From: an uncultured bacterium
GTDB taxonomy: Bacteria; Actinomycetota; Coriobacteriia; Coriobacteriales; Coriobacteriaceae
Direction: 5' to 3'
NCBI GenBank assembly: GCA_905214425.1
Contig: CAJMLY010000008.1
Span: 3,197-67,196, forward strand
DNA: 64,000 bases
The notes under the pieces were generated by a model, which did no database searches, had not been told where the DNA came from, and saw only the letters and a program-made list of their open reading frames with translations. The translations under genes and the position numbers were made by a program. Positions 873-23,359 of this stretch are shown one piece after another (the stretch's first letter is position 1; each line of letters starts with the position of its first letter).

Positions 873-1010
873 GTCTCAATCTGTAACATCTACAGGGCAA
901 ATCTTCCTCTACGTGTTACAGATCGAGACAAACGGTCGACACGGTTCAGAAACGTCTCAATCTGTAACAGTTACCGAGTAAAATCGGCCCTAATTGTTAT
1001 AGATCAAGAC
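873..1010. repeat. Family A palindromic repeat array 1 (2 units of 57 nt; the second right arm is degenerate)
   Basis: GTCTCAATCTGTAACA (873-888) + 25 nt + TGTTACAGATCGAGAC (914-929). A 24-nt linker follows. Then GTCTCAATCTGTAACA (954-969) + 25 nt + TGTTATAGATCAAGAC (995-1010). Confidence 0.9.
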
Positions 1011-1189
1011 AGAGGGGGATTTCCGTCCAGTCCAAACCAAATCTCTCAGTCTTCCTGCAATTTCGAACATGTGGCCTATAATGTTGCTTTGGTTACGCTA
1101 TATATTGCGCAGCCATTTAATACGTCGCCCACCGGGGGCCATTAATTCCTATCGCCATATTGGCTAGGAAGCAATCAAAGGAGGTATCC

Positions 1190-2152
1190 GTGGCAGCAGA
1201 GACGCCTTGCTCGGTCCTCTATAACGATATTCGCTCGTTCGGCGGTCTTAAACATCTCGAGATCGCCCGAATGCTCATCAATGGAAACTCTTATCTCGGC
1301 AGTACCCTGCTCGAGAAATGCTCTTCCAACCGCTCGTATCTCACCCGTTACATCGTCCATCGCAAGCCTGACCAGTGCGCGCCCTCCATCTACAGCGACT
1401 TTACCGTCACCACGCTCAACCTTTCCTCGGCAATCTGCAGCAAGCTCGGCGGCGGCGAGTCCGCCTATCGGGCAATCGCCGAGCACTATCGCGGTCCGGC
1501 CGCCAACGAAATGATGTCGGCTCTCGCCAGCTACAAGCTGGACAGCCGCCTATATGCAAATGCCCTCAATCGCATCGACAACTTTGACGGCAATGCCGTG
1601 CGCGAGAAAAGCACGCTTTACCTTATGCTCTTTGTGGCAACGGGGGCGCTCGCCGATCCCGTTCAGGGCGTGGCCACCGTCGAGCGCTTTTGCGACAGCA
1701 AGACGGGCGAGCACTTTGGCACCACCGAAACTACCGTCGGACGTGGCTTTATGAGCAGCCTGGAGCAGCCGCGCACCGTCGCCCCCAACCTCGGTCTGCT
1801 CAGAACCCATGCCGACAACTGCGCCGACATGCAAATCCATCCCCTCACACGCGATCCGCGCGGCACGGTAATTGGGTCCTTGCCCAAAACCTCGCCCAGC
1901 ATCACCGATGTAGGCGCTGATGCATCGCGTGAGCATCTCCGCATTTGGCTCGAGGGTGGGCACTGGTACGCCCAGGGCCTTGGATCGACCAACGGCACAG
2001 TGCTCGAATCGGGCGCGGGCGACGGCGATATTGTGATTGAGCCGCCGCGCGACCAACGCGAACCCGGCAAAGTCTATCCCCCCGTGGAAATCGCCAACAG
2101 CGACAGGCTCCATCTGGGTCTCTACACGACATTCCTTGTCATTGTGGACTAG
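1190..2152 (+). CDS. FHA-domain protein (C-terminal forkhead-associated domain, unknown N-terminal domain)
   Basis: The C-terminus HLRIWLEGGHWYAQGLGSTNGTVLESG...IANSDRLHLGLYTTFLVI matches the FHA pattern (G-S-x-N-G-T ... D-x-L-x-LG). The likely start is GTG at 1190, 6 nt after AAGGAGG (1177-1183). The track ORF starts at TTG 1160. Confidence 0.7.
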   Translation: MAAETPCSVLYNDIRSFGGLKHLEIARMLINGNSYLGSTLLEKCSSNRSYLTRYIVHRKPDQCAPSIYSDFTVTTLNLSSAICSKLGGGESAYRAIAEHYRGPAANEMMSALASYKLDSRLYANALNRIDNFDGNAVREKSTLYLMLFVATGALADPVQGVATVERFCDSKTGEHFGTTETTVGRGFMSSLEQPRTVAPNLGLLRTHADNCADMQIHPLTRDPRGTVIGSLPKTSPSITDVGADASREHLRIWLEGGHWYAQGLGSTNGTVLESGAGDGDIVIEPPRDQREPGKVYPPVEIANSDRLHLGLYTTFLVIVD

Positions 2153-2166
2153 CACGGACAGCGATC

Positions 2167-2200
2167 GGAAGACGGTCGCCGTCCGTCTTTCGTCTTCTAC
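2167..2200 (+). terminator. Possible intrinsic terminator after the FHA gene
   Basis: GGAAGACGG-tcgccgt-CCGTCTTTC hairpin followed by the T-rich run CGTCTTCT. One mismatch in the stem. Confidence 0.35.
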
Positions 2201-2230
2201 CTTCTGTGTCGTAAACGACAATACTCAGCG

Positions 2231-2291
2231 GTACACGTGAGCAGTGCGGCTATCATGGTACTTTACCGATATCCGCACTGCTCACGTGTAC
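2231..2291 (+). promoter_or_regulatory. Perfect 19-bp inverted repeat (23-nt loop) just upstream of the kinase start
   Basis: GTACACGTGAGCAGTGCGG (2231-2249) and CCGCACTGCTCACGTGTAC (2273-2291) are exact reverse complements. Each arm contains CACGTG. The element ends 32 nt before the kinase ATG. Confidence 0.5.
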
Positions 2292-2323
2292 GCGCGGCAA
2301 CCCATGCCAGACAAAGGAACGCC

Positions 2324-4408
2324 ATGGATACTACCAATAGCGCCTATGGCGACAAACTTATCCGTCTCGATACGTTCGATACCGCCGTGGCGGTCGACCC
2401 CAGCGCCGAGGACGACGCCAAGCGTCGGTTTATGACGCTTATTCTCCAGACGGCCCACCGCGACAACGGCAACATCGGGCACGTGCTGCGCGCGACCAAC
2501 ACGAGCGGCGAGGTCTTTGCCGTCAAGCTACTCAAGGACAACGCCTTTCTCTCTGGCCAAGCCCCCGACCGCTCCGCCGAGCAATCGGCAGCGCACCTGG
2601 CCAACACCGCTGCGCTGTTCGAGGAGTACCGTCATCTGTGTACCGTCTCGCACCTGCGCGGATTTCCGCGCGTCTATGGCTACGGATCGTGCGAGGACGA
2701 CCCGCTCATCCTCATGGAGTGGGTCGAGGGCACCTCACTCAAGCAGGCGCTGCCCCTGCTTCCTCACGACGCCTCGGGCGGGCTGACCACCCAGATGGTC
2801 GCCGCCGTCGGAAACGCCGTGCTTCGTGCGCTCTTGATGACCCAAGGCCTCGTGAATCCGGTCGTCCATCGCGACCTGTCGCCTGCCAATATCATGTTCC
2901 GCACCACCAGCCGAACGCTCGAGCAGCAGATTGCCGATTGCTCCTTTGACCCCTGCCTCATCGACATGGGCTCCGCGACCATGGCACTCGGCGACGACAC
3001 AATCACCCGACGTGCCGACATTTGGCGCTTTGCCACGCCCGCATACGCCGCGCCCGAGATGCTCACGCAGGATATCGAAGGCATCGCGGCCCTTCGCCGT
3101 TCGCCGGCAATCGACGTCTATGCGCTTTCGAGCATTCTGTACCAGCTCTACAGCGGTCGCAAACCGTTCGATGTTAAGTCGACGGGCGCCGCGGCGACCG
3201 GCTCGTTCTACCTCATAAAGACCAAGACCAAACCGGCACCGCTCGAGCCGCGCTGCGAGGGCGATGAAGCGCTCGTCAAAATCATCATGAAGGGTCTCTC
3301 AGTCGAGCAGTGCGATCGTCCCACCGAGCAGCAGATGCTCGAGGTGCTCTCGGCATACCTCACCGATGCCGAATCCGAGGGCCCCGAAGGCACAGGAGAC
3401 GAGGCCGCGATTGATATCGATTCTGGCACGCACCTTAAGGTCGACGTCGCCGGCGAGCGCGCACGAGAGATCCTGAATCAGGCCCGCCACGATGCCATGA
3501 CCCGCCGCCGCTTTATTATCGGCGGCGCTATCGCAGCCGTTGCGGGGCTCAGCGTTATCGGGGCGGCAACCCATGGCTTTGGCATCCCCGACTACCTTGA
3601 CGGCATCCGCGGTTCACTTGACGACTACACCTGGGATCAGCTGCAGGAGATTTCGCTCAAGATTAAGGCCGCCGAGACCCGTAGCGAGGCACGCGAGATT
3701 GCCAAGCGCTATCACCTGCTCGATGCCGATGGGCATATCCCCTATCCGTGTACCAAGCGTGTCACGCTCACCAACGGGCTGCAGGTTGGCGCGCAGCTTG
3801 TGGGCATCCGCCACGATGAGCTTCTGGACGGGACGGGCAAGGCCGGACTGACGTTTATGTTCGATGCGGGTATTGCCGAGCGCAACGCTGCGGCTGAACC
3901 GCCGAGCGCCGGCTGGGCAGATTGCGAGCTGCGGGAATGGCTCAACGGCGACGGCCTTAAGCTGCTGCCCAACGAGTTGCGCGCACTCATTAAAGGGGTC
4001 AAGAAGGTCTCGAACAATGTGGGCGCCGCCAACAGCGCATCGTGCCTGAGCGAGTTGCCCGCAACCCTTTGGCTGCCCGCCATGGTCGAGCTGTGCGGAG
4101 TGCAGCCGCCCGATTCGTTTACCGAGGACTATCACTACCTGGCAGACATCTACAACGGCGAGGGCAAGGAGTATCAGCTCTTCCGCGAGCTCAAGGTGAG
4201 CCCGTATTCCACGAACGAGACGATGGTCCGCCAGTGGAAGGGCAAGGACACCTGTTGGTGGGAGCGCACGGTGAGCCCCGACACATCGGAGAGCGAAGGC
4301 ACGCTCTATATGAACCGCGTGGGGCACGACGGCGACGTCTTTACGTACGCAACGCCTGCGGAAAAGCCAAACAAGCTAACCTGTGTGATCCCCGGGTTCT
4401 GTATCTAG
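2324..4408 (+). CDS. Hanks-type Ser/Thr protein kinase with one TM segment and a C-terminal extracellular domain
   Basis: Kinase motifs AVKLL (VAIK-like), HRDLSPANIMF (HRD/catalytic loop), DMGSA (DFG-like) and AAPE. TM segment RRFIIGGAIAAVAGLSVIGAA. The ectodomain has W..CELREWLNGDG...LWLPAMVELCG, reminiscent of DUF6273-type domains (recalled from memory, unverified). ATG 2324 is preceded by AAGGAA. The track start GTG 2237 lies inside the hairpin and was rejected. Confidence 0.85.
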   Translation: MDTTNSAYGDKLIRLDTFDTAVAVDPSAEDDAKRRFMTLILQTAHRDNGNIGHVLRATNTSGEVFAVKLLKDNAFLSGQAPDRSAEQSAAHLANTAALFEEYRHLCTVSHLRGFPRVYGYGSCEDDPLILMEWVEGTSLKQALPLLPHDASGGLTTQMVAAVGNAVLRALLMTQGLVNPVVHRDLSPANIMFRTTSRTLEQQIADCSFDPCLIDMGSATMALGDDTITRRADIWRFATPAYAAPEMLTQDIEGIAALRRSPAIDVYALSSILYQLYSGRKPFDVKSTGAAATGSFYLIKTKTKPAPLEPRCEGDEALVKIIMKGLSVEQCDRPTEQQMLEVLSAYLTDAESEGPEGTGDEAAIDIDSGTHLKVDVAGERAREILNQARHDAMTRRRFIIGGAIAAVAGLSVIGAATHGFGIPDYLDGIRGSLDDYTWDQLQEISLKIKAAETRSEAREIAKRYHLLDADGHIPYPCTKRVTLTNGLQVGAQLVGIRHDELLDGTGKAGLTFMFDAGIAERNAAAEPPSAGWADCELREWLNGDGLKLLPNELRALIKGVKKVSNNVGAANSASCLSELPATLWLPAMVELCGVQPPDSFTEDYHYLADIYNGEGKEYQLFRELKVSPYSTNETMVRQWKGKDTCWWERTVSPDTSESEGTLYMNRVGHDGDVFTYATPAEKPNKLTCVIPGFCI

Positions 4409-4450
4409 GCGGCGGGCGTCTTGCCGCAACGGGACCCCTCCCCGGCAATT

Positions 4451-4555
4451 GTCTCGATCTGTAACAGTTAGAGGTCATTTTCCCTGCTAGATGTTACAGA
4501 TTGAGATGATTGGTTGGGACGGTCCATCGGCCAACCAATCATCTCAATCTGTAAC
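4451..4555. repeat. Family A array 2 (1 complete unit plus an orphan left arm)
   Basis: GTCTCGATCTGTAACA (4451-4466) + 25 nt + TGTTACAGATTGAGAT (4492-4507). The 33-nt linker is itself a palindrome (GATTGGTTGG...CCAACCAATC). An orphan arm ATCTCAATCTGTAAC (4541-4555) follows. Confidence 0.85.
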
Positions 4556-4580
4556 GAAATCTCATATATTATTTCTGTAC

Positions 4581-4611
4581 TGGACACCCCCAGGGGGTAT
4601 GGGTGTATAGT
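4581..4611 (+). promoter_or_regulatory. Putative copA promoter with a CsoR-type operator
   Basis: TGGACA (4581-4586), a 19-nt spacer, then TATAGT (4606-4611). The spacer holds the GC-rich dyad ACCCCC-A-GGGGGT (4586-4598) flanked by A/T. This resembles known CsoR operators (TACCCC..GGGGTA type). A csoR gene lies in the same operon. Confidence 0.6.
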
Positions 4612-4658
4612 ATCGGATGGTTAACATTTCCGACACTACGTCACAGAAAGGAGAAGCC

Positions 4659-6998
4659 ATGGCTCAAGATAAGTTCGACGTGGGTGGCATGACATGCGCC
4701 GCCTGCCAGGCGCACGTGGACCGCGCCGTGAGCAAGCTCGACGGCGTCGAGAGCGTCGCGGTCAATCTGCTCGCCGGTTCCATGATGGTCGACTACGACC
4801 CCGCGCAGGTCTCCCCCGACGACATCTGCACCGCTGTCGACCGCGCGGGCTACTCGGCCTCGCCCGTCAGCACGGGCACCGACGCTGTCCAAAGCGGAAG
4901 TGCGCAAGCCAGGTCCGGCGCCGCCCATATGGAGTCGCCCACCAAAAAGTTGGAGGCCGCCGCCTCTGCCATGCGCACCCGCCTCATCGTCTCGATCGTC
5001 TTCCTCATCCCACTGTTCTACATAGGCATGGGGCACATGCTCGGCTGGCCGCTGCCCGGCATCTTCACCGACCACACCCACAGCATGACGCTCGCTCTCA
5101 CCGAGCTCGCCCTGCTCATCCCCATCGTCTACATCAACGACGCATACTTTATCAACGGGTTTAAATCGCTTACGCATGGCGCGCCTACCATGGACGCCCT
5201 TATTGCCGTGGGCGCCACTGCTTCCATCGCCTGGTCGCTCTACGCCATGTTCATCATGGCCGACCAGCTAGCCGCGGGTCAGGTCCACGAGGCCATGATG
5301 ACGAGCATGGACAACCTGTATTTTGAGAGCGCCGGCACAATCCTGTCGCTCGTCACCGTGGGCAAATATCTCGAGACACGCAGCAAATCCAAGACCGGCG
5401 GCGCCATCGAGGCGCTCATCGACTTGGCGCCCAAGACCGCGACCGTCGTGGCAGAGGACGGCACCGAAACCACCGTCGATGTCGACGCCATCCTTCCCGG
5501 CCAGGTCCTGCGCGTGCGCCCCGGCGAGTCCATCCCCGTCGATGGCGTGGTGCTCGAGGGCAGCTCGGCCGTGGACGAGAGCGCGCTCACCGGCGAGTCC
5601 ATCCCCGTGGAGAAGACCGCCGGCGACACTGTCAATGCGGCCACGGTCAACCGCACGGGCTCGTTTACCTTCCGCGCCACGCGTGTGGGCGCCGACACGT
5701 CGCTCGCCAAGATTATCCAGCTCGTCGAGGACGCCAACGCCACCAAGGCGCCCATCGCCCGCATGGCCGACAAGGTCGCCGGCGTGTTCGTGCCCGTAGT
5801 ATTCGCGATCTCGGCCGTGACCTTTGTGGCGTGGATGGTGCTGACCGGAAGCGTCAACGAAGCGCTTACCTCCGCCGTCGCCGTGCTGGTGATCAGCTGC
5901 CCGTGCGCGCTGGGCCTGGCCACGCCCGTCGCCATTATGGTCGGCACCGGCAAGGGCGCCGAGATGGGCATTCTCTTTAAGAGCGCCGAGGCGCTGGAGA
6001 ACCTGCGCAGCGTGGGCACCGTGGTGCTCGATAAGACGGGCACGGTCACCCGCGGCAAGCCTGCCGTGACCGATATCGTGGTAGCCACGCGCGCTGACGG
6101 CTCGCCCGCCATGAGCGAAAAGGCGCTGCTCAAGTTGGCCGCCGCGCTGGAACGCTCAAGCGAGCACCCGCTGGCCGAGGCGATTATGGCCGAGTGCGAG
6201 ACACGCGGGATCGTCGCGCGCATGGTCGAGGACTTTGCCGCCGTGCCCGGACGAGGCGTTACGGCGCGCGAGGGGCAAAACGCCATTGCAGCCGGCAACG
6301 TACGCCTGATGGACGAGCTGGGCGTTACCGTGCCCGCGGGTCTTGCCGAGCAATTTGCCACCGAGGGCAAGACGCCGCTGTTCTTTGCCAAGAACGGCGA
6401 GCTTGCCGGCACCGTTGCCGTGGCTGACGAGGTCAAGGAGACGAGCGCCGGGGCCATCGCCGCACTGCGCTCGCTTGGCGTCGACGTGCGCATGCTCACC
6501 GGCGACAACCGCGTCACCGCCGAAGCGATCGCCCGCCGCGTGGGACTGACCAGCAAGCAGGTCATCGCCGACGTTCTCCCCGCCGACAAGGAACGCCACG
6601 TGCGCGAACTGCAGGATGCGGGCGGCAAGGTCGCCATGGTGGGCGACGGCATCAATGACTCCCCCGCCCTGGCGCGCGCCGACGTGGGCCTTGCTATCGG
6701 CACCGGCGCCGACATCGCCAAGGAGGGCGCCGACGTGGTACTCATGCGCAGCGACCTCATGGACGTCGCCCGCGCCATCGAGCTTTCGCGCGCCACGATC
6801 CGCAACATCAAGCAGGACCTGTTCTGGGCGCTGTTCTACAACGGCATCGGCATTCCGCTGGCGGCGGGCGTGTTCTTCCCGCTCACCGGATGGCAACTCT
6901 CGCCGATGTTTGGCGCCGCGGCCATGAGCCTGTCGAGCGTGTGCGTCGTGAGCAATGCGCTGCGTCTGAAATCCTTTAAGCCTAAGACGGCGCGCTGA
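4659..6998 (+). CDS. copA: Copper-translocating P1B-type ATPase
   Basis: N-terminal HMA domain [13 protein letters not shown] metal site CPC ([13 protein letters not shown]). Phosphorylation site DKTGT, plus TGDN and [13 protein letters not shown] 4659 is preceded by AAGGAG. Confidence 0.95.
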
Positions 6999-7150
6999 AG
7001 CACCCGACCTTGCCCCTCAAACCGTCGCTCACGTACCAAAGTACGCTTCGCTCCTCTTTCGGGGCAATCTCGGGCACCTCAGCGTGCCTTTAAGATGACT
7101 CTGTTCACGACTAAACTGTCAGATAAACTCAATCGATAAGGAGTACACCC

Positions 7151-7372: not shown

Positions 7373-7398
7373 CAGACGCCGCCTACTGAATCCTCAGA

Positions 7399-7465
7399 AG
7401 TTGCGGTGAAATACGGACTGTTGTGCCGCCCTAGGCCTTTAAACGGTCCGTATTTCACCGCAACT
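7399..7465. repeat. Family B hairpin repeat, copy 1
   Basis: AGTTGCGGTGAAATACGGAC (7399-7418) and GTCCGTATTTCACCGCAACT (7446-7465) form a perfect 20-bp inverted repeat with a 27-nt loop. It lies between copZ and csoR. Confidence 0.9.
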
Positions 7466-7507
7466 GACGGGGATATCCGAAAGATCGACCAGAAACGAGG
7501 ACCCGCC

Positions 7508-7780: not shown

Positions 7781-7790
7781 TTGGGGCATT

Positions 7791-7837: not shown

Positions 7838-7892
7838 CTTGCTCTAAATCGGGTATAAAGGCGTGCGGCATATCGAATGAAAGGCAATTTGC

Positions 7893-8366: not shown

Positions 8367-8389
8367 CCGCCATACCATGGGACAAAATA

Positions 8390-9992: not shown

Positions 9993-10130
9993 GTCTCGAT
10001 CTGTAACAGGTACAGGGTTATTGGGCCCCCTGATGTTACAGATCGAGACATTCGGTCGACGTTTCACCGGTTTGTCTCGATCTGTAACAATTACGAACTC
10101 AAACAACTTCTAAACGTTACAGATCGAGAC
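9993..10130. repeat. Family A array 3 (2 units)
   Basis: Units start at 9993 and 10074. Arms are GTCTCGATCTGTAACA / TGTTACAGATCGAGAC, loops are 25 nt and the linker is 24 nt. The array ends 8 nt before the stop of the next gene. Confidence 0.9.
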
Positions 10131-11235: not shown

Positions 11236-11531
11236 GCCTCGATCTGTAACAGGAAGACCGATTTTTGACCGCTAGATGTTACAGAACAAGATCTTTCGGC
11301 AGCCGCCAACCTTTGTCTCAATCTGTAACAGGTAGGTCGAATTTGGGCCTGTAGATGTTACAGATTGAGACATTCCCCCAGTCAGGTGCCAAACGTCTCG
11401 ATCTGTAACAGCTAGACGTTCTCCAGGCCCCCAAACGTTACAGATTTAGACAAACCAGCGGAGTCCAAGCGTTCGTCTCGATCTGTAACAGGTAGACCGG
11501 TTTTTTGTCCCTAAACGTTACAGATCAAGAC
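11236..11531. repeat. Family A array 4 (4 units; the first is degenerate)
   Basis: Units start at 11236, 11315, 11395 and 11475. Loops are 25 nt and linkers 23 nt. Confidence 0.9.
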
Positions 11532-11574: not shown

Positions 11575-12282
11575 CTACTCCCACTCCTGCTCGTAGATGT
11601 TGAGCGACTTCACGTACCGCCCCTGGGCGCCCATGATGTCACGGACCAGGCGCAAAAAGAAGCTGATGCACGAGGTGTCGAAACCGTCCTGTAGGTCCTC
11701 GGGATGCACCGCGCCCGGCCCGTCGACCGCCGTATCGCTCAGGCGCGCGATGTCATACAGGCAGAGCTGCCCCGCCGCCAGCCAGACATCGTCAGCGCAG
11801 GCAAGGCGTACCGCAATCGCGCCGTCGCTCCAATGTTTCTTTTGCACGATATGTGGGTCGTAGACATCAAAGCGACGGTCGGTGCGCGTGTCCTTCAGCA
11901 CGACTATGCCAGTCGCGGGATCCTTGTCCAAAATGCCAAAGCGCGAGAAATACTGCGTATCACGCACCTGCTTAAGTCGCCCGAGCGAAGCAGGAGAAAT
12001 TGACGCTGGCGGCTCGTCCACATACAGCTCCAACAGCGTCTTACCGTGGTAATAGGGGCGCTCAAACAGCAGCCAATCGGTAAACGCCATGTTGTAGGCC
12101 ATGATTTCGTTTTGAGAAGGTTCCTCACAATAGCTGAGCCACGGATCGACGATAATCTCGAACTGCTCGCGTGCCGGCTCCAGGAATTGAAACTTCCGCA
12201 GCATCCAAAAGTGAGCCATGTCGGCAATATCGTTGCCGACGGCTTCGGCCAGCTCTGCTCGGTCAAAAACTTGGTCAGTCAT
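11575..12282 (-). CDS. Hypothetical protein (235 aa)
   Basis: Single long ORF with good third-position GC bias and a GAGGAGG RBS before ATG 12282. No family motif recognised. Confidence 0.6.
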   Translation of the reverse strand: MTDQVFDRAELAEAVGNDIADMAHFWMLRKFQFLEPAREQFEIIVDPWLSYCEEPSQNEIMAYNMAFTDWLLFERPYYHGKTLLELYVDEPPASISPASLGRLKQVRDTQYFSRFGILDKDPATGIVVLKDTRTDRRFDVYDPHIVQKKHWSDGAIAVRLACADDVWLAAGQLCLYDIARLSDTAVDGPGAVHPEDLQDGFDTSCISFFLRLVRDIMGAQGRYVKSLNIYEQEWE

Positions 12283-14129: not shown

Positions 14130-14134
14130 GGCAC

Positions 14135-17100
14135 TTACGCCTCCTTCTTGGTCGAAGCAACAGAGCCGGCAGCCACGGACGCAGCGCCCGCAACATCAAA
14201 GCGAGCGACATCTGCGGCACCCGCGCGACCGGTCACGATGTCAAACGCCAGCTCCTCGGCCTGCGCATGCGTCTTGCCGGCAGCCTCGCCCGCGGCGACA
14301 ATCGCCAGCACGCGCTCATACTCGGTCGGAATGACCTTCACAAAGTGTTTGCTCATCGTTTCAAAGCTGTAGAGCAGCTTGATGCCGCGCGGGCTCTGCG
14401 TAGCGTCCACGTGCTCCTGGATGAGCTCGCGAATCTGCGCCAGCTCGCCGGCCGTCGGGGCCTTGAGATCAACGCTCTCGTGGTTCACGCGGGCATTGAG
14501 TGTGCCGTACTGGTCAAAGACGTAGGCCACGCCGCCTGTCATGCCGGCGGCAAAATTCTGCCCGACCTCGCCCAGGATGAGCGCCAGACCGCCCGTCATG
14601 TATTCGCAGCCATGGTTGCCGCAGCCCTCGACCACCACCGTGGCACCGGAGTTGCGCACGGCAAAACGCTGGCCGGCAAGACCGTTAATGAAGCCGCGGC
14701 CGCTCGTGGCACCAAAGAACGCAACGTTGCCCACGATGATGTTCTCGTCGAACTTGTAGGTCGCATGCGGGTTGGGGCGCACCGACACCTCGCCGCCCGA
14801 AAGGCCCTTGCCAAAGTAGTCGTTGGCGTCGCCGCACACGTTGAGCGTAATGCCGCGCGGCAGGAAGGCTCCAAAGCTCTGACCGGCCGAACCATCGCAA
14901 TCGATGGTGATGGAGCCGGCGGGCAGGCCCTCGGGATGCGCCTTGGTCACCGCGTTGCCAAGGATGGTGCCCACGCAGCGGTTGACGTTGGCGATATCGG
15001 CGCGGAAGCGAATCGGACGCAGGTGCGCGCGGGCATCGGCCGTATAGGGCACAAACAACGTGGAGTCGAGCGTCTTGTCGAGCTCGCTGTCCGCGGCCAT
15101 CTGCGGCAGGAAGTGGCGACCGTCGGCGCCCGGAATATGGGCACCGAACTCGCAGGTCGCGCTCGCCAGCACGGGCGACAGATCGAGCAGGTTTGCCTTG
15201 CGGTTACCCGGGACCTCGATCTGGCGCAAGCACTCGGGATGGCCGACCATCTCGTCGACGGTGCGGAAGCCCAGGCTCGCCATGACCTCGCGCAGCTGCT
15301 CGGCAACAAAGAGCATAAAGCGCTCAACGTGCTCGGGCTTGCCGCGGAAGCCGCGACGCAGGCGGCAGTTTTGCGTGGCGATGCCGGCCGGGCAGGTGTC
15401 CTGCTGGCAGTCGCGTTGCATGAGGCAGCCCATGGAGATGAGTGGCATGGTCGCAAAACCAAACTCCTCGGCACCCAGCAAGCAGGCGACGGCAACATCG
15501 GTGCCGTCCATGAGCTTGCCGTCGGCCTCGAGCACCACGCGTGAGCGCAGGCCGTTTTGAAGCAGCGTCTGCTGGGCCTCGGCAAGGCCAAGCTCCAGCG
15601 GCAGACCCGCATGCCAGATAGAGTCGCGCGCAGCGGCACCCGAGCCGCCGTTGTGGCCACTGATCAAGATCTTGTCGGCAGCACCCTTGGCCACACCGGT
15701 GGCGATGGTGCCGACGCCGGCCTCGCTGACCAGCTTGACCGACACGCGTGCGCCGGGGTTGGCGTTCTTAAGGTCAAAGATCAGCTCTGCCAGGTCCTCG
15801 ATGGAGTAGATGTCGTGGTGCGGCGGAGGCGAGATCAGGCCGATGCCGGGCGTGGACTGACGGACCTCGGCGATCCAGGGGTAGACCTTCTTGCCGGGCA
15901 GGTGGCCACCCTCGCCGGGCTTGGCGCCCTGGGCCATCTTGATCTGAATCTCGAAGGCACTGCACAGGTAGCGGCTCGTCACGCCAAAGCGCGCGCTTGC
16001 TGCCTGCTTGATGGCAGAGTTCTTGGAGTCACCGTTAGCCAGCGGAGTCTCGCGACGCGGATCCTCACCGCCCTCGCCGGAGTTGGAACGGCCGTGCAGG
16101 CGGTTCATGGCGATGGCCATGCACTCGTGTGCCTCTTTGCTGATGGAGCCATACGACATGGCGCCGGTGTTAAAGCGGCGGACGATGTTGAGCGCGGGCT
16201 CGACCTCGTCGAGTGCCACCGGAGTGCGACCGCTGGCATCAAAGTCCAGCAGGTCGCGCAGGCGCACGGCACGGCCGGTGCGGTGCAGGCGGGCGCTGTA
16301 CTCCTTAAAGGTGTCGTAGCTGTCCTCACGGCAGGCGGTCTGCAGCAAGTAGACAGTCTGCGGATCGATGAGGTGATCCTCGCCGCCGAGCGGACGCCAC
16401 TTGGTCAGGCCCAGCGTGGGCAGCTGATCGGGAGCCGGGCTCTTAAGGATAGCGAGCGCGGCGTCGTAGCGCTCGTTTTGCTCGCGCTCAACGTCCTCGA
16501 CACCCATACCGCCCACACGGCTCACCGTGCCGGCGAAGTACGCGTTGACGAACTCAGGCGTAAAGCCCACGGCCTCGAAGATCTGCGCCGAATGGTAGCT
16601 CTGCACCGTGGAGATGCCCATCTTGGACATGATGGAGACGATGCCGGCGGTCGCAGCCTTGTTGTAGTTGGCGATGCCCTGCTCGGCCGTCACGTCCAAG
16701 TCGCCGCGTGCCGCCAAGTCGCGAACGCACGCATGTGCGTTGTACGGGTAGATGCCGCTCGCGGAGTAGCCCACCAGCGCCGCAAAGTCGTGCGGGGACA
16801 CGGCGTCGCCGCACTCCACCACGATGTCGGCAAAGGTGCGCACGCCGGCGCGGATCAGGTGGTTGTGCACGCAGCCCACGGCGAGCAGCGAGGGCACAGG
16901 CACCTCGCCCGCCGCGGCACGATCGCTCAACACCACGATGTTCACGCCGTCGCGGACCGCAGCCTCAACGTCCTCTGCAAGCTGCTTGAGCGCAGCCTGC
17001 AGCGCGCCCTCGCCGGCATCGCGGCGGTACACGGCACGGAAACGGCGGGTCTTAAAGCCAACACGGTCGATGGCGCAGATATGCTCGAACTCCTCCTCGT

Positions 17101-18820
17101 TGAGCAACGGGCGCTCCAGGCGAACCAGCTGGCAGGCCGTACGGGAGTCCTCGAGCAGGTTGCCGTGGTTGCCCAGGTAAAGCGTGGTCGAGGTGACCAT
17201 ATGCTCGCGCAGGGCGTCGATGGGCGGGTTCGTGACCTGGGCGAACAGCTGATAGAAGTAGTCAAAGAACGAACGCGTCTTCTTGGACAGACAGGCCAGC
17301 GGCGCATCGATACCCATCGAGGCGAGCGGCGCCTTGCCCTGCTGGGCCATGGGACGCACTACCTCGTCAACATCATCCCAGTGATAGCCGAGCTTGGCCA
17401 TACGCACGGCGGCAGGCACCTCGGCGTCCTCGGCGGGTGTTGCCGCAACGGGCTCATCGAGCGCGTCAACGGTCAGCGTCTCCTCGGCAATCCAGTCGCG
17501 GTAGGGCTTTTCCTTGGCGTAACGGGCGCGCAGCTCATCGTTGTAGATGACACGCCCGCGGGCAAAGTCGACTTCGAGCATCTGGCCCGGCCCCAGACAG
17601 CCACTCGTCAAGATGTTCTCGGGGCGCACCTCGATGGTGCCCACCTCGCTTGCCAGCATAAAGCGGCCGTCGCGCGTCACATAGTAGCGGGCGGGACGCA
17701 GGCCGTTACGGTCGAGGGCGGCGCCCAGCGTGCGGCCGTCGGTAAAGGCGATGGCCGCCGGGCCATCCCACGGCTCCATGAGCATGGACTGGTAAGCGTC
17801 GTAGGCGCGGCGCTCCTCGCTCAGGCTGTCGTTGTGGTCCCACGGCTCGGGCAGCAACATGGACGCGGCACGCGTAAGCGGGCGACCGTTCATGACCAGG
17901 AACTCGAGCACGTTGTCCAGAATCGCGGAGTCGGAGCCCTCGCGGTTGATGATGGGCATCACACGCTCAAGATCGTGCTGCAGCACAGGGCTGTACAGGT
18001 TGGGCTCTCGGGCGCGGATCCAGTTGACGTTGCCCTTGAGGGTGTTGATCTCGCCGTTGTGGATGATAAAGCGGTTGGGGTGTGCGCGCTCCCAGCTGGG
18101 CGTGGTGTTGGTGGAGTACCGCGAGTGGACGAGCGCTACGGCCGTCTTGACGGCGGCATCGTTGAGATCGATAAAGAAGCGGCGCATCTGCGTGGCGACC
18201 AGCATGCCCTTGTACACGATGGTGCGCGAGCTCATGGAGCACACATAGAAGATCTTGTCGCGCAGGGCAAACTCGGCGTCGGCCTTTTTTTCGATGGTGC
18301 GGCGGCACACGTACAGGCGACGCTCAAAGGCATCGCCGGCGGGCGTGTCGTCCGGACGGCCCAGGAAGGCCTGCAGGATAGTAGGCATGCAGGCGCGGGC
18401 CGTCTCGCCCAGGTCGTGCGGGTCGACCGGCACCTCGCGCCAAAAGAGCAGCGGCACGCCGGCCTCGGCGCAGCCCTCCTCGAACACGCGGCGGGCATCC
18501 TCCACGCCCTTGTCATCCTGCGGGAAGAACAGCATGGCCACGCCATAGTCGCCCTCTGCCGGCAGAATCTGGCCGCACTTTTGAGCCTCTTTACGGAAAA
18601 AGTGATGCGGAACCTGGAACAGGATGCCAGCGCCGTCGCCGGTGTTCTTCTCGAGTCCCGTGCCGCCGCGGTGCTCCAAGTTGACCAGAATGGACAGTGC
18701 ATCGTCCAGAATCTGGTGATGGCGCTCACCGTTGATATCGGCAAGCGCGCCGATGCCACATGCATCGTGGTCGAATTCGGGGCGATAAAGGCCCTGCTGC
18801 TGAGCGAAATCTGCCTGCAT
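14135..18820 (-). CDS. gltB: Glutamate synthase large subunit
   Basis: 1561 aa. N-terminal Ntn amidotransferase (DACGIGA after Met removal), central FMN / 3Fe-4S domains and a C-terminal GXGXG domain. Immediately upstream of gltD. Confidence 0.95.
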   Translation of the reverse strand: MQADFAQQQGLYRPEFDHDACGIGALADINGERHHQILDDALSILVNLEHRGGTGLEKNTGDGAGILFQVPHHFFRKEAQKCGQILPAEGDYGVAMLFFPQDDKGVEDARRVFEEGCAEAGVPLLFWREVPVDPHDLGETARACMPTILQAFLGRPDDTPAGDAFERRLYVCRRTIEKKADAEFALRDKIFYVCSMSSRTIVYKGMLVATQMRRFFIDLNDAAVKTAVALVHSRYSTNTTPSWERAHPNRFIIHNGEINTLKGNVNWIRAREPNLYSPVLQHDLERVMPIINREGSDSAILDNVLEFLVMNGRPLTRAASMLLPEPWDHNDSLSEERRAYDAYQSMLMEPWDGPAAIAFTDGRTLGAALDRNGLRPARYYVTRDGRFMLASEVGTIEVRPENILTSGCLGPGQMLEVDFARGRVIYNDELRARYAKEKPYRDWIAEETLTVDALDEPVAATPAEDAEVPAAVRMAKLGYHWDDVDEVVRPMAQQGKAPLASMGIDAPLACLSKKTRSFFDYFYQLFAQVTNPPIDALREHMVTSTTLYLGNHGNLLEDSRTACQLVRLERPLLNEEEFEHICAIDRVGFKTRRFRAVYRRDAGEGALQAALKQLAEDVEAAVRDGVNIVVLSDRAAAGEVPVPSLLAVGCVHNHLIRAGVRTFADIVVECGDAVSPHDFAALVGYSASGIYPYNAHACVRDLAARGDLDVTAEQGIANYNKAATAGIVSIMSKMGISTVQSYHSAQIFEAVGFTPEFVNAYFAGTVSRVGGMGVEDVEREQNERYDAALAILKSPAPDQLPTLGLTKWRPLGGEDHLIDPQTVYLLQTACREDSYDTFKEYSARLHRTGRAVRLRDLLDFDASGRTPVALDEVEPALNIVRRFNTGAMSYGSISKEAHECMAIAMNRLHGRSNSGEGGEDPRRETPLANGDSKNSAIKQAASARFGVTSRYLCSAFEIQIKMAQGAKPGEGGHLPGKKVYPWIAEVRQSTPGIGLISPPPHHDIYSIEDLAELIFDLKNANPGARVSVKLVSEAGVGTIATGVAKGAADKILISGHNGGSGAAARDSIWHAGLPLELGLAEAQQTLLQNGLRSRVVLEADGKLMDGTDVAVACLLGAEEFGFATMPLISMGCLMQRDCQQDTCPAGIATQNCRLRRGFRGKPEHVERFMLFVAEQLREVMASLGFRTVDEMVGHPECLRQIEVPGNRKANLLDLSPVLASATCEFGAHIPGADGRHFLPQMAADSELDKTLDSTLFVPYTADARAHLRPIRFRADIANVNRCVGTILGNAVTKAHPEGLPAGSITIDCDGSAGQSFGAFLPRGITLNVCGDANDYFGKGLSGGEVSVRPNPHATYKFDENIIVGNVAFFGATSGRGFINGLAGQRFAVRNSGATVVVEGCGNHGCEYMTGGLALILGEVGQNFAAGMTGGVAYVFDQYGTLNARVNHESVDLKAPTAGELAQIRELIQEHVDATQSPRGIKLLYSFETMSKHFVKVIPTEYERVLAIVAAGEAAGKTHAQAEELAFDIVTGRAGAADVARFDVAGAASVAAGSVASTKKEA

Positions 18821-18930
18821 CGCGATCCTCCCCTTGGTGTTAGACAGTCAGTTGAATAGGCATACTAGAAGTATCGCCGATCCGTTATGTTTCCTGCCCG
18901 TTTCGAAACAATTGCGTAACGCACGCAACA

Positions 18931-19021
18931 AATGATCCCTTGGGGATGGAAGGAAACGGACCACTTGGTCGGACTGACCCCCCCTGAGTGATCCGTTTTC
19001 CTCCGTCCCCAAGGGGTCATT
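18931..19021. repeat. Family C long hairpin, copy 1
   Basis: AATGATCCCTTGGGGATGGAAGGAAACGGA (18931-18960) pairs with TCCGTTTTCCTCCGTCCCCAAGGGGTCATT (18992-19021). The 30-nt arms differ only by a few transitions. Confidence 0.85.
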
Positions 19022-19121
19022 CTGAAAAAGCGATACCCGAGTACCTCAATTCCATATATTCATACATGTTTAGTAGGTTGTAGACTATCGGGAACCGAAA
19101 CCGTGCAGACAGGAGTCACTC

Positions 19122-20639
19122 ATGGGCTATCCGAGCATTCATCCCACCGGCACACTCATCTACGACAAAGAGCGTGCCTATAACGGCTACACCATTTTCC
19201 CCACCCCGGGCGGCGCGCTGCTCATCGACATGAACGGCCGCGAGGTCAACCGCTGGGCGGGTCTGGGCGGCTTCCCCAACAAGCTGCTGCCGGGCGGTCA
19301 AGTCTTTGGCACCTCGGGCGCACGCGGCGGCGCGGCAGCCTACCAGGACCAGCTCGACCTGTTGCAGGTCGACTGGGACGGCAATATTGTGTGGAAGTGG
19401 GACCATACCGAACTCGTCGCCGACGAGGGCAAAGACCCCACCTGGCAGGCGCGTCAGCACCACGACTACCAGCGTGAAGGCTCGCCCGCGGGCTATTATG
19501 CGCCCGGCCTAGAGCCGCGCACGGACGGCGGCAACACCATCATCCTCACGCACGAGAACAGCTATCACCCCGAGATCAGCGACAAGCTCCTGATCGACGA
19601 CAAGGTCATCGAGGTCACCTGGGACGGCGAGGTCGTCTGGGAGTGGCGCGCGTCGGAGCATTTTGAAGAGTTCGGCTTTGACGAGGCAGCCAAAAAGTCG
19701 CTCCACAACAATCCCTCCATGCGCGGCGAGGCCGGCGGCGACTGGCTGCACATCAACTGCGTCTCGGAGCTCGGCCCCAACAAGTGGTACGAGCGCGGTG
19801 ACGAGCGCTTTGCCCCCGAAAACCTCATCTTCGACTGCCGCAACGCCAATATCCTGGCCATCATCTCCAAAAAGACGGGCAAGATCGTCTGGAAACTCGG
19901 CCCGCGCTTCGACGGCAGCGATGCCGAGAAAAAGATCGGCTGGATTATCGGCCAGCATCACTTTCATATGATCCCCAAGGGCCTTCCCGGCGAGGGCGAT
20001 CTGTTGGTCTTCGATAACGGCGGTGCCGCGGGATACGACGCGCCCAACGCTATCGCGCCCGACGGCACCAACGCCGTCCACCGCGACTACTCGCGCATTC
20101 TGCAGTTCAACCCCATCACGCTCGAGATCACGTGGCAGTACACCCCGCTCGAAGCCGGCTGGCTCCCCTTTGCCGACGGCAGTCGCTTCTACTCGCCGTT
20201 CATCAGCTCTGCCCAGCGTCTGCCCAACGGCAACACGCTTATCACTGAGGGCTCCGACGGTCATCTGATCGAGGTCACGCCCAAGCACGAGATTGTCTGG
20301 GAGTATCTGAGCCCCTACTTTAAGGCACCGGCGCCCGGCTTTAGCTCCAACATGGTCTACCGCGCCTACCGTGCGCCCTATGAGTGGGTTCCGCAGGTAG
20401 AGCACGCGCCCGAGGTGTCGATCGAGCCCATCGACAACGCCACCTTCCGCGTGCCGGGCGCTTCGAGCGAGAAGCTCAACGTGACCGTGGTCGATGGCAT
20501 CGACCCCTACCAGACCGCTCTGACCGGCATGAATGCCGAGGACGAGGAATCCGACGAGGGCCACGCGGACTTTTGCATGATGCGCCTGGACACCGCCGAC
20601 CTCAAGGGCGACAACAAGGGCCCCAAGTTCGACCTATAA
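19122..20639 (+). CDS. Aryl-sulfate sulfotransferase (ASST)-family beta-propeller protein, no signal peptide
   Basis: His-rich conserved blocks (QHHDYQREG, DWLHINCV, IGQHHFHMI) and overall length recall Arylsulfotran_2-type proteins common in gut Coriobacteriia. The assignment is from memory, not from a search. Confidence 0.55.
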   Translation: MGYPSIHPTGTLIYDKERAYNGYTIFPTPGGALLIDMNGREVNRWAGLGGFPNKLLPGGQVFGTSGARGGAAAYQDQLDLLQVDWDGNIVWKWDHTELVADEGKDPTWQARQHHDYQREGSPAGYYAPGLEPRTDGGNTIILTHENSYHPEISDKLLIDDKVIEVTWDGEVVWEWRASEHFEEFGFDEAAKKSLHNNPSMRGEAGGDWLHINCVSELGPNKWYERGDERFAPENLIFDCRNANILAIISKKTGKIVWKLGPRFDGSDAEKKIGWIIGQHHFHMIPKGLPGEGDLLVFDNGGAAGYDAPNAIAPDGTNAVHRDYSRILQFNPITLEITWQYTPLEAGWLPFADGSRFYSPFISSAQRLPNGNTLITEGSDGHLIEVTPKHEIVWEYLSPYFKAPAPGFSSNMVYRAYRAPYEWVPQVEHAPEVSIEPIDNATFRVPGASSEKLNVTVVDGIDPYQTALTGMNAEDEESDEGHADFCMMRLDTADLKGDNKGPKFDL

Positions 20640-20655
20640 GCTCACCGCTTCAAGC

Positions 20656-20872
20656 ATCTCAATCTGTAACAGAAAGACCATATTTCGACGCCTAACTGTT
20701 ACAGATTGAGATGCTTTTGAGAGACGGTTCCGAATGTCTCAATCTGTAACACGAAGGGCCGGTTTTGGCGGTCAGTTGTTACAGATCGAGATTTTCCATA
20801 GGACCATTTCTTCCTGTCTCGATCTGTAACACCTCGGCCCAATTTCCATCCGTAGTTGTTACAGATCGAGAC
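20656..20872. repeat. Family A array 5 (3 units)
   Basis: Units start at 20656, 20736 and 20816 (exact 80-nt period). Loops are 25 nt and linkers 23 nt. Confidence 0.9.
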
Positions 20873-21010
20873 ATTTCGGCAGCCCCCTTTCACCATCCCA
20901 TTCAAATTCAACAATTTTGTTAGTCTTGGTTAACTTTTAAGCCTAAAACGGGTATCCTTTGCGGCGTCAAGCAAACGGCACGCACACCGTGCCAAATCAA
21001 GGAGGCCCCT

Positions 21011-21784
21011 ATGGCACACCAAGCAGACCAGCAGACGATGCAACTTGTCCTTATCCGTCACGGAGAATCCGAGTGGAACAAACTCAACCTGTTCACCGGC
21101 TGGACCGATGTTGAGCTCACCGACACGGGCCGCGAAGAAGCCGCCGCAGGCGGTCGAGCCCTCAAAGAAGCCGGTTTCGACTTTGACGTCTGCTTCACTT
21201 CGCGCCTCAAGCGCGCGATCCACACCCTCAACATCGTGCTCGGCCAAATGGATCGCGAGTGGCTGCCCGTCATCAAATCCTGGAAGCTCAACGAGCGCCA
21301 CTACGGCGCGTTGCAGGGTCTCAACAAGGCCGATGCCGCGGCAGAGCACGGCGACGAACAGGTGCTCATCTGGCGCCGCTCCTTCGACGTGTGCCCACCG
21401 GCACTCGAGCCGGACGACGCACGCGATCCCCACACCCAGGAGCAATACCGCGACGTCGCACCCGATCAGCTGCCCTATACCGAGTGCCTCAAGGATACGA
21501 TCGCCCGCGCCTGGCCTTATTTCGAAGACGAGATTCGCCCCCAGATGCTCGCCGGCAAGCGCGTACTCATCGCCGCGCACGGCAACTCCCTGCGCTCTCT
21601 CGTCATGAAGTTCGAGCACCTCACGCCCGAGGAAATCCTCAAGGTCAACATCCCCACCGGCGTGCCACTCGTCTACACCTTCGACACCGATTTCAACGTC
21701 CTCGACAAGCGCTACATCGGCGACCCGGCAACCATCGCCGCCAAGATCGACGCCGTGGCCAATCAGGGCAAAGCGCACAAGTAA
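21011..21784 (+). CDS. gpmA: 2,3-bisphosphoglycerate-dependent phosphoglycerate mutase
   Basis: LVLIRHGESEWNKLNLFTGWTDVELT (RHGE catalytic His motif) and ...AAHGNSLR. AAGGAGG RBS. Confidence 0.95.
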   Translation: MAHQADQQTMQLVLIRHGESEWNKLNLFTGWTDVELTDTGREEAAAGGRALKEAGFDFDVCFTSRLKRAIHTLNIVLGQMDREWLPVIKSWKLNERHYGALQGLNKADAAAEHGDEQVLIWRRSFDVCPPALEPDDARDPHTQEQYRDVAPDQLPYTECLKDTIARAWPYFEDEIRPQMLAGKRVLIAAHGNSLRSLVMKFEHLTPEEILKVNIPTGVPLVYTFDTDFNVLDKRYIGDPATIAAKIDAVANQGKAHK

Positions 21785-21844
21785 CCCCAACCTAAACCGA
21801 GCGCTCGGCGCCGCATAACCCAAGCGCGGCGCCGCGCTGCCCTT

Positions 21845-23116
21845 ATGCAGGAACCGACCATGATCAACCATCTCAAACACCACTTTGGCTCCCGACGCAC
21901 CGGTGGTCACGGAGGCCTAGACATTGCACGGCATATCGGTCCCGGGCTGCTCGTCACCGTCGGCTTTATCGACCCGGGCAACTGGGCCTCCAATATGGCC
22001 GCGGGCTCGCAGTTTGGCTACGCGCTGCTGTGGATCGTCACGCTGTCCACGATTATGCTCATTGTGCTGCAGCACAACGCGGCGCACCTGGGTATCGCCA
22101 CGGGCGCCTGTCTTGCCGAGGCCACGACACGCTACCTCCCCCGCTTCGGTGGGCGCACGGTGCTCGCCAGTGCCTATCTCGCGACCATCGCCACCGCCAT
22201 GGCCGAAGTCCTGGGTGGCGCGATTGCCCTTCAAATGCTCTTTGGGCTGCCCGTGCGCGCGGGCTGCGCCATCGTGGCGGCAGTGTCGATGGCGATGCTC
22301 ATGACGAGCTCCTACAAACGCGCCGAACGCTGGATCATCGCTTTCGTAGGCGTGGTAGGACTCTCGTTTTTGGCCGAGCTTGCACTAGTCAAGGTCGACT
22401 GGCCGCAAGCCGCCGCAAGCTGGATCACACCCAGCATGCCCACTGGCTCTGCCGCGATTATCGTAAGTGTCCTAGGCGCGGTCGTTATGCCCCACAACCT
22501 CTTCCTGCACTCCGAGGTCATCCAATCCATGCACTTTGAAGGCCAAGGCGAGCAAGTTATCGAAGAACGTTTGCGCTACGAGCTCTTCGACACGCTCTTT
22601 TCGATGGGCGTGGGCTGGGCAATCAACTCGGCCATGGTCATCCTGGCCGCGACGACCTTCTTTGCGCATGGCATTGTCGTGGATGACCTGGCCGTCGCGG
22701 CGGCCACGCTCTCCCCCATTCTGGGCACGGCAAGCTCGACCATCTTTGCGGTAGCGCTGCTGTTCGCGGGACTATCGAGCAGCGTGACGGCGGGCATGGC
22801 GGCGGGCACCATCACCGCGGGCATGTTCGACGAGGAATACGACATCCACGACCGACATTCCTCGATCGGCGTGGCGGCCTGTTTCGTCGGCGCAGTGACG
22901 GCGTGCCTGGTCGTCCCGAATCCCTTTGAAGGTCTCATCTGGAGTCAGGCACTGCTGTCGCTTCAGCTGCCGATTACGGTCTTTGTGCTCATACGGCTCA
23001 CCAGCTCACGCCGCGTCATGGGCAAATACGTCAACTCGCGCCCACTCAATGCGCTGCTCATAGGGATCGGTATCATCGTGACGACTCTCGATATCGTGTT
23101 GTTGACAGGGATGTAA
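21845..23116 (+). CDS. mntH: Nramp-family divalent metal (Mn2+/Fe2+) transporter
   Basis: GFIDPGNWASNMAAGSQFGY (DPGN motif), MPHNLFLHS and about 11 TM segments. Confidence 0.9.
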   Translation: MQEPTMINHLKHHFGSRRTGGHGGLDIARHIGPGLLVTVGFIDPGNWASNMAAGSQFGYALLWIVTLSTIMLIVLQHNAAHLGIATGACLAEATTRYLPRFGGRTVLASAYLATIATAMAEVLGGAIALQMLFGLPVRAGCAIVAAVSMAMLMTSSYKRAERWIIAFVGVVGLSFLAELALVKVDWPQAAASWITPSMPTGSAAIIVSVLGAVVMPHNLFLHSEVIQSMHFEGQGEQVIEERLRYELFDTLFSMGVGWAINSAMVILAATTFFAHGIVVDDLAVAAATLSPILGTASSTIFAVALLFAGLSSSVTAGMAAGTITAGMFDEEYDIHDRHSSIGVAACFVGAVTACLVVPNPFEGLIWSQALLSLQLPITVFVLIRLTSSRRVMGKYVNSRPLNALLIGIGIIVTTLDIVLLTGM

Positions 23117-23142
23117 TGGGACGGGGCACCTACCCAGTCAAA

Positions 23143-23359
23143 CGTCTCGATCTGTAACATCTAGACCCGCTTTTGATGTCTAGATGTTACAGATCGAGAT
23201 CATTCCGAGGGACAGCTCCGTTTGTCTCAATCTGTAACACGTAGACCCCGTTTTCACTGCTAGATGTTACAGATTGAGATCTTCTGCCGGACGGTTTTGG
23301 TTTATCTCAATCTGTAACAGATAGACCCGTTTTGAGCCGTTAGATGTTACAGATTGAGA
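23143..23359. repeat. Family A array 6 (3 units; includes the best-preserved copy)
   Basis: Units start at 23143, 23223 and 23303. Unit 1 (23143-23199) is a perfect 23-bp stem, GTCTCGATCTGTAACATCTAGAC...GTCTAGATGTTACAGATCGAGA, with an 11-nt loop. Confidence 0.95.

Follow-up and report, generated by a model that had tools for sequence, protein, structure and literature searches.

A mosaic repeat family of Collinsella in which the sequence and spacing of inverted arms, not their pairing, appear to be maintained

What is preserved in a repeat whose arms can fold into a hairpin: the hairpin itself, or the sequence and spacing of the arms? The question is raised by a 64-kb stretch of DNA from an uncultured member of the Coriobacteriaceae (contig CAJMLY010000008.1 of assembly GCA_905214425.1; referred to as the window, which means this stretch at its full length), in which six intergenic arrays are built from a 57-nt unit made of two inverted 16-nt arms (left, +; right, -) around a 25-nt loop, with linkers separating successive units. 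We describe here the anatomy, conservation pattern, dynamics and clustering of these arrays in Collinsella, together with lineage-specific variants of their arm. The reading that we propose, and that we hold to be about evenly poised between right and wrong, is that the arms are recognition sites of a dedicated lineage-specific protein, and that sequence and spacing are what is maintained in these mosaic repeats, which resemble the repetitive extragenic palindromic (REP) sequences, bacterial interspersed mosaic elements (BIMEs) and REP doublets (REPINs) of other bacteria, or the Neisseria intergenic mosaic elements (NIMEs).

Searching the window with the arm pattern GTCTCRATCTGTAACA and allowing at most two mismatches returned 30 arm matches, against 0.05 expected by chance; all are confined to positions 873-23360 and alternate strictly between the + and - strands. 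When up to four mismatches were allowed, the degenerate right arm at 11277-11292 was also recovered, and the six arrays, with the arm RTCTCRATCTGTAACA, comprise 15 complete units and one orphan arm (Table 1), as the original prediction, made from the letters of the DNA, had listed them. The length of 25 nt that it gave for every loop also stands (15/15 units). Its linkers of 23-24 nt are corrected to 22-24 nt plus a single linker of 33 nt, the lengths being 24, 33, 24, 22 and then six times 23 nt; the unit starts that it gave for the last array (23143/23223/23303) were off by one and are corrected to 23144/23224/23304. The best copy (23144-23200) does form the perfect 23-bp stem ascribed to it, and the proposed folding in two registers is confirmed by array A6, whose minimum-free-energy RNA structure (-109 kcal/mol, z = -10.5) adopts the alternative register. 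In the window, whose G+C content is ~60%, Tandem Repeats Finder detected the best array alone, with a period of 80.

At least 119 stretches of the genome collection contain the exact 57-nt pattern; almost all come from C. aerofaciens or related Collinsella metagenome-assembled genomes. The regular spacing seen in the window, itself Collinsella DNA, held across the 918 kb sampled (119 other Collinsella loci plus the window, 836 arms). From + to - arm, 383 of 386 gaps measure 25 nt; from - to + arm, the gap is 22 nt (9 cases), 23 nt (154) or 24 nt (91), hence 22-24 nt in 254/258, with four longer exceptions. The outcome is a lattice with a period of ~80 nt, in which an arm falls every ~40 nt in alternating orientation. 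Among the 158 arrays, one unit is found in 13, two in 58, three in 48 and four in 20, with a maximum of eight, and 141 of them have at least two complete units; in nearly all, the first arm is + and the last is -.

Within this lattice, invariance reaches at least 94% at 14 of 16 positions of the arm (821 arms); positions 1 and 6 are G or A. Further conserved positions lie symmetrically outside the arm, W-W-Y (W, A or T; Y, C or T) at -3 to -1 and TAG at +19 to +21, and the pattern is identical inside arrays and at their edges, where the outer flank consists of unique sequence. The best explanation is that the selected part is an asymmetric 16-bp site, of ~24 bp with its flanks: W-W-Y, RTCTCRATCTGTAACA, NN-TAG. 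Loops are also asymmetric and occur in both orientations, which are mixed within arrays; when oriented, they follow the consensus tcTAGgcGcCaAAAacgGgtCTAgc (~17 bits in total), and ~92% of them contain a central A tract. Linkers carry 9-12 bits of consensus and have W-rich ends.

Base pairing leaves no comparable trace. Arm positions 1, 5, 6 and 16 show no within-unit compensation (odds ratios 0.86, 0.42, 1.12 and 0, respectively; n = 403), so that A.C or G.T stands at position 6 in about half of all units, and in co-directional gaps A.C mismatches on the sense strand (35 and 29) outnumber G.U pairs (19 and 12). At loop positions 6-11, Watson-Crick pairing is 0.16-0.34, against 0.30-0.38 in shuffled loops, and the mutual information among positions of the loop is a mark of subfamilies, not of helices. 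Of the stem extension TAGAC...CTAGA that had been proposed, TAG (loop positions 3-5) and CTA (21-23) are each found in ~75-80% of copies, although without covariation; its continuation into the rest of the loop has to be abandoned, pairing beyond TAG/CTA in loops, in linkers and in unit flanks being at or below shuffled controls. For the 15 units of the window, pairing of the named hairpin stands at 74.9%, versus 75.9% after shuffling; pairing is 94.6% in its arm helix and 43.3% in the loop 'helix', where there is no excess over shuffles. Apart from GATC, no inverted repeat exists within the arm RTCTCRATCTGTAACA itself, and only some units allow it to pair with the beginning of the loop. The lack of covariation, together with the unpaired loops, indicates that sequence and spacing are conserved and that the hairpin is not; as far as sequence comparison tells, base pairing between the arms does not appear to be detectably under selection.

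Copy number and clustering were mapped on 0.9 Mb of one genome, NZ_OY725717.1. Recorded in PLSDB as 'plasmid 6' (899,693 bp), this molecule is a fragment of a C. aerofaciens chromosome with ribosomal-protein operons, rpoBC, tuf, recA, ftsK and dnaE. It holds 13 arrays and two remnants (~31 units); the first 402 kb are free of arrays, and six of 14 array sites fall within the 20-kb orthologue of the window segment, a clustering reached by only 10 of 200,000 random placements. These placements and the low count show that the family is low-copy and clustered, and that the restriction of all window copies to the first 23.4 kb, correctly stated in the original prediction, reflects a conserved hot spot. 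According to the PGAP annotation, arrays of this fragment lie in five convergent, five co-directional and two divergent gaps and mostly start 8-112 nt past a stop codon; A1 in the window and the A5 orthologue in this record are divergent, promoter-region placements. Three 2-unit arrays stand at the junctions of a triplicated lacG/phosphotransferase system/LacI module (NZ_OY725717.1 751406-761359) and have a loop type, but not flanks, in common; this suggests that such junction arrays mediate segmental duplication or have been converted between neighbors.

The position of most arrays just past stop codons, with 10 of 13 in convergent or co-directional gaps in the annotated strain, and the great stability of the predicted hairpins would suit selection at the RNA level, gene-end hairpins acting as terminators, 3'-end stabilizers or RNase III sites and the DNA features being secondary. 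However, structure alone would leave unexplained the near-invariant arm, the exact 25-nt unpaired loop and the lineage-wide replacement of the arm described below. The missing covariation and the excess of A.C mismatches over G.U pairs on the sense strand also argue against an RNA helix as the selected object, as do the arrays found in divergent promoter regions. Promoter and terminator consensus scans of the arrays gave no match, and the arrays have no terminator-like U tract; in Rfam they have no match at gathering thresholds, a permissive search returning only sub-threshold miRNA-hairpin models. We thus consider it unlikely that an RNA function is what is selected. Transcripts across the arrays fold into 16-23-bp hairpins, and an effect on mRNA ends is likely, though apparently secondary.

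Many loci are orthologous to the window, and the comparison of their arrays reveals how these evolve. Relatives differ in unit number: orthologous arrays contain 1-5 units (A1, 1-2; A2, 2-5), with the exact register kept, and no array-less orthologue was found among the orthologous loci compared. Chimeric loops are seen in some orthologous arrays, and units are common to neighboring arrays (A3/A4, A5/A6 and the lac-region arrays); inversion of a loop or linker relative to its flanks was seen in none of 616 informative pairs between strains. Among orthologous arrays, 50 pairs share the same architecture; in these, arms have diverged by 2.2%, loops by 13.3%, linkers by 11.5% and flanks by 9.5%, which puts the substitution rate of arms ~5-6x below that of adjacent DNA; at only 2% flank difference, loops differ by 10%. 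Indels are almost absent despite this heavy substitution. When units with related loops are paired, the 28 invariant arm positions diverge by 1-4% while the loops diverge by 0-24%, and the four R (G or A) positions are 9% different at identical loops and ~43% different at six loop differences. The state of position 1 goes with one side of the linker (GTTT|G in 87%). These flips of the R positions and the linkage of position 1 to the linker indicate that arrays act as mosaics of modules recombining inside the invariant arm core. Arm positions 1 and 6 also swap G and A several times faster than adjacent loops mutate, and across linkers their states are anti-correlated (odds ratio 0.23); such flips may come from module exchange or from a mutational hot spot at CG/GATC.

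Two further explanations can be set against this evidence. Functionless, partnerless leftovers of old tandem duplications, subject to neutral drift, would account for the likeness of loops within an array and for shifts in unit number by simple recombination, but not for arms that evolve 5-6x more slowly than the adjacent DNA, for the near absence of indels or for the concerted change of arms between lineages; we regard such an origin as extremely improbable. The arms might instead be the 16-21-bp terminal inverted repeats of a DDE insertion sequence (IS), the units being minimal miniature inverted-repeat transposable elements (MITEs) that formed arrays by repeated adjacent insertion. They are long, asymmetric and sequence-conserved inverted repeats, like terminal inverted repeats, and several IS families are present in the species. 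However, target-site duplications and flank pairing are absent, fixed 22-24-nt linkers with a consensus of their own are unexpected from independent insertions, no element with arms around a transposase gene was found, the ends of IS30 (the sole DDE-family ends compared) are unlike the arm, and orthologous loci show no insertion polymorphism. A MITE origin is thus very unlikely.

Further evidence on the arms comes from three distant syntenic loci (L145, L146 and L147), found through relatives of the DUF559-like protein whose open reading frame (ORF) of 356 aa is one of two embedded among the arrays (Table 1). Their gene order is gltB-gltD-p235-p364-amidohydrolase-ZnRib-csoR-copZ-copA, and at equivalent positions around both ORFs of unknown function they carry arrays with a variant arm, GTGCRTATCTCAGACA or GTGCATATCTGTGACA, which is identical to the window arm at only 9-11 of 16 positions and is spaced by gaps of 22-23 and 27 nt. 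In L145, 16 variant-arm matches were counted versus 0.23 expected by chance, and the 235-aa ORF has variant-arm arrays on both sides. All arms found in the three loci are of the variant type; a scan of L146, the sole locus scanned for the C. aerofaciens arm alone, gave no match to that arm. Compared with their counterparts in these loci, the window's DUF559-like protein shows 53-59% identity and its 235-aa protein 49-50%, against 72-97% for seven neighbors. Arms that are near-invariant within a lineage and replaced in concert between lineages point to a lineage-specific factor that reads them. By position and evolutionary rate only, the DUF559-like ORF or the 235-aa ORF would be the candidate arm-recognizing protein. 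That one of these two embedded ORFs encodes a protein for which the arrays serve as cognate DNA sites, and which would act mainly in cis and co-evolve with the 16-bp site, is a tentative extension to which we give a rather low probability. If true, action in cis would account for the hot spot, and co-evolution with the site for the concerted change of arms between lineages.

Several observations weigh against the reading that a dedicated protein recognizes the arms, or against the assignment of that role to an embedded ORF. The inverted layout by itself makes the arms pair at 14 of 16 positions, and an enzyme reading a single-stranded hairpin sequence-specifically, like RAYT or Ssn, would give the same conservation pattern. 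Both the existence and the action of a trans-acting protein are inferred from sequence; many of the counts were drawn from related genomes and are hence not independent. The DUF559 match of the 356-aa ORF is sub-threshold (E = 0.034), with no GIY-YIG, Pfam, NCBIfam, PADLOC or PHROG match and an empty PDB profile search, and the predicted structure of the protein (pLDDT 43) is an unusable model. Its family amounts to 4745 clusters, and most of its members presumably have nothing to do with such repeats. In L146, the DUF559-like orthologue has no adjacent array, the sole array lying upstream of the 235-aa ORF, and in NZ_OY725717.1 seven arrays outside the hot spot lie 90-460 kb away from both ORFs.

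With these reservations, a dedicated protein, most likely of nuclease or recombinase type, would recognize each arm and act preferentially close to its own gene. Nicks or breaks that it made at the arms would be repaired from neighboring units. Such repair or recombination could keep the arms uniform by concerted evolution while loops and linkers turn over faster than the surrounding DNA, and it could likewise produce the gain and loss of whole units in register, the sharing of modules between neighboring arrays and their regional clustering.

A different enzyme would be at work if the units were true REPIN-type elements, hairpins in single-stranded DNA mobilized by a Y1 HUH transposase (a REP-associated tyrosine transposase, RAYT, or an IS200-like TnpA) encoded elsewhere in the genome. 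The architecture agrees, with its invariant inverted 16-mers, fixed spacing and variable spacer; C. aerofaciens encodes an IS200/IS605 TnpA; and REPINs are documented both to occur in clusters and to persist vertically over long times. The arm lacks a palindromic core, however, and neither a conserved GTAG-plus-hairpin module nor compensatory changes were seen; arrays, not singlets, predominate. A check for Y1 transposases did turn up two identical IS200 copies in a related strain, but these are multi-copy insertion sequences whose end hairpins are unlike the arm, and one of them destroyed an array. A tblastn search with the IS200 TnpA found no match in the 918 kb around arrays, and the 900-kb fragment has no single-copy Y1 gene flanked by units. 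Mobilization of this kind is improbable in our view, and IS200 was rejected as the partner, its ends being unrelated to the arm. The first copy (IS200/IS605, tnpA WP_055287554.1) lies at the loop/right-arm junction of the A6 orthologue (L136 22699-23520, equivalent to NZ_OY725717.1 422699-423520), where the remainder of the array is lost; the second is at NZ_OY725717.1 533435-533893. As the original prediction held, there is no RAYT, cas or transposase gene among the annotated parts of the window.

Table 1. Arrays and embedded open reading frames in the 64-kb window, with their settings.
Feature	Coordinates	Strand	Linker or basis	Setting
Array A1, 2 units	873-1010 (873-929, 954-1010)	no strand	linker 24 nt	flanked by divergent genes: DEAD-box helicase (2-637, -) and FHA gene (1160-2152, +)
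Array A2, 1 unit and orphan left arm	4451-4556 (4451-4507; 4541-4556)	no strand	33-nt hairpin-like linker	starts 42 nt past kinase/DUF6273 stop codon; copA downstream
Array A3, 2 units	9993-10130 (9993-10049, 10074-10130)	no strand	arm search	8 nt past stop codon of DUF559-like ORF; upstream of amidohydrolase gene
Array A4, 4 units	11236-11531 (11236-11292, 11315-11371, 11395-11451, 11475-11531)	no strand	linkers 22, 23, 23 nt	gap separating 235-aa ORF from DUF559-like ORF
Array A5, 3 units	20656-20872 (20656-20712, 20736-20792, 20816-20872)	no strand	arm search	starts 16 nt past arylsulfotransferase stop codon; gpmA downstream
Array A6, 3 units	23144-23360 (23144-23200, 23224-23280, 23304-23360)	no strand	arm search	flanked by convergent Nramp and ABC-ATPase genes
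DUF559-like ORF, 356 aa	10139-11209	-	weak DUF559-like C-terminus	bracketed by A3/A4
235-aa ORF	11575-12282	-	no family match	adjoins A4

Other repeats occur in the region. A second palindromic family, whose 22-nt arms (AGTTGCGGTGAAATAGGGACTG and its complement) enclose a variable loop of 23 nt, is found at 7399-7472, 35879-35952, 49798-49871 and 50659-50732, always as single units, of which the 900-kb C. aerofaciens fragment contains ~17; in contrast to the main family, it shows apparent compensatory variants at the inner arm ends (GTTCCTG/CAGGAAC versus CGGACTG/CAGTCCG). A third motif, GATCCCTTGGGGAYGGARGAAAA, is located at 18934-19018 (as an inverted pair), 34920-34942 and 47167-47192, and stands exactly at the breakpoints of segments missing from other Collinsella genomes, namely 18927-20580, with the arylsulfotransferase gene, and ~23402-34918. 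At least seven other Collinsella genomes lack the latter segment, of 11.5 kb, which is inserted ~42 nt past A6, not in the array; it encodes an iron-siderophore-type ATP-binding cassette (ABC) transporter, ThiF, a thioredoxin, a sulfite-reductase-like protein, a Cys/Met pyridoxal-phosphate enzyme and a second ABC system, a content of transport and sulfur metabolism in which no mobility genes were seen. An L31-Coriobacteria ribosomal-protein leader (58595-58630, -) matches its Rfam model just above the gathering score, and tRNA-Glu and tRNA-Gln lie at 37430-37598. A further repeat of ~50 nt (57950-58000 and 44831-44874, and also at several other Collinsella loci) is a source of false orthology signals; presence/absence polymorphisms at ~58000 and ~37508 were rejected as artefacts of another short repeat and of a tRNA gene, respectively. 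At two other loci (L121 1946-2300 and L027 4380-4700), a prophage-like insertion starts ~75 nt from an array, just past a terminator-like hairpin, and arrays consequently turn up in 'viral' contigs. The presence of arrays within phage genomes was rejected: the seven viral-contig matches are host flanks beside a prophage junction, and a search of the phage collection with the array pattern gave no match.

The literature, searched with the sequence, the taxon and REP/RAYT terms, yielded no description of the element, and the supplements of a survey of structured RNAs (PMC8040213) contain no matching sequence; the concern that the unit might belong to an already described family is thus met by no match in Rfam or in the searchable literature. 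The arrays appear to form a REP/BIME-like non-coding repeat family without prior description in searchable literature and databases, of which a partner protein and a function can only be proposed. Collinsella is an abundant genus of the human gut, and no such repeat family was found for Collinsella or the Coriobacteriia in these sources. The element uncouples two REP-like features that are usually confounded, sequence and spacing being kept and pairing not. The replacement of the arm sequence lineage-wide, at fixed genomic positions, makes a specific partner protein testable, with two named candidates. In practice, the arrays offer variable-number markers for strain typing, and they are likely to cause assembly breaks and local recombination in Collinsella metagenome-assembled genomes.

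Compared with known systems, the layout that had been called CRISPR-mimicking is so only superficially. As in CRISPR arrays, a short conserved repeat alternates regularly with fixed-length variable spacers; however, the Collinsella repeats alternate in strand, their loops and linkers are inherited, diverged homologues of a common, degenerate consensus, the arrays are very short and no cas gene is found among the annotated genes. MITEs combine terminal inverted repeats with a target-site duplication and an autonomous IS, whereas the flanks of Collinsella units have no direct or complementary relation, and none of the IS ends examined (IS30, IS200) matches the arm. The BIMEs of Escherichia coli consist of imperfect palindromes of ~35 nt in alternating orientation, separated by a few discrete linker motifs, some of which bind IHF. 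The alternating orientation, the two classes of intervening segments, the variable number of units and the placement mostly past gene ends are reminiscent of BIMEs; the Collinsella element differs in being a non-palindromic 16-mer, with fast-evolving spacers of fixed length and linkers of 9-12 bits.

The closest analogue named in the original prediction, the REPIN, agrees with our element in architecture. REPINs are two invariant inverted 16-mers set a constant distance apart, the spacer keeping its length but being less conserved, and RAYT genes are flanked by REPIN clusters (PMC3116915); inverted 16-mers at a fixed 25-nt distance are found here as well (383/386 cases; 15/15 in the window). 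Like REPINs (PMC3116915, PMC5581495), the elements are extragenic, vertically persistent and sometimes in tandem clusters, and they cluster beside a candidate partner gene. The analogy fails in three other respects. Each REP has an imperfect palindromic core, which the Collinsella arm lacks; REPIN spacers have hairpin capacity and compensatory changes, and the Collinsella loop has neither; and REPINs are mostly dispersed singlets, hundreds per genome, whereas Collinsella arrays commonly have 2-4 units, with tens of units per Mb, and are regionally clustered. REPINs also accompany a flanking single-copy RAYT; in the window, the 119 loci and the 900-kb fragment, none was found. The host here is an actinobacterium.

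The neisserial dRS3/NTS repeats and the nuclease SsnA (PMC11893778; PMC1797815) provide another parallel, a short repeat bracketing variable intergenic segments and existing in lineage-specific variants. There, a 20-28-nt hairpin is read as single-stranded DNA by a GIY-YIG nuclease, whereas the Collinsella site alone is not a hairpin, no GIY-YIG gene was seen and the flanked gene is the DUF559-like candidate. In NTS-ssnA-NTS, a small gene whose function was previously unknown has its cognate repeat on both sides, the distribution of the repeat being non-random and clustered (PMC11893778), and among known systems this arrangement is the best precedent for such a pairing of gene and repeat. If one of the embedded ORFs is the partner of the Collinsella arrays, they would represent a third repeat-plus-enzyme partnership, beside RAYT-REPIN and Ssn-NTS, built on a different protein fold.

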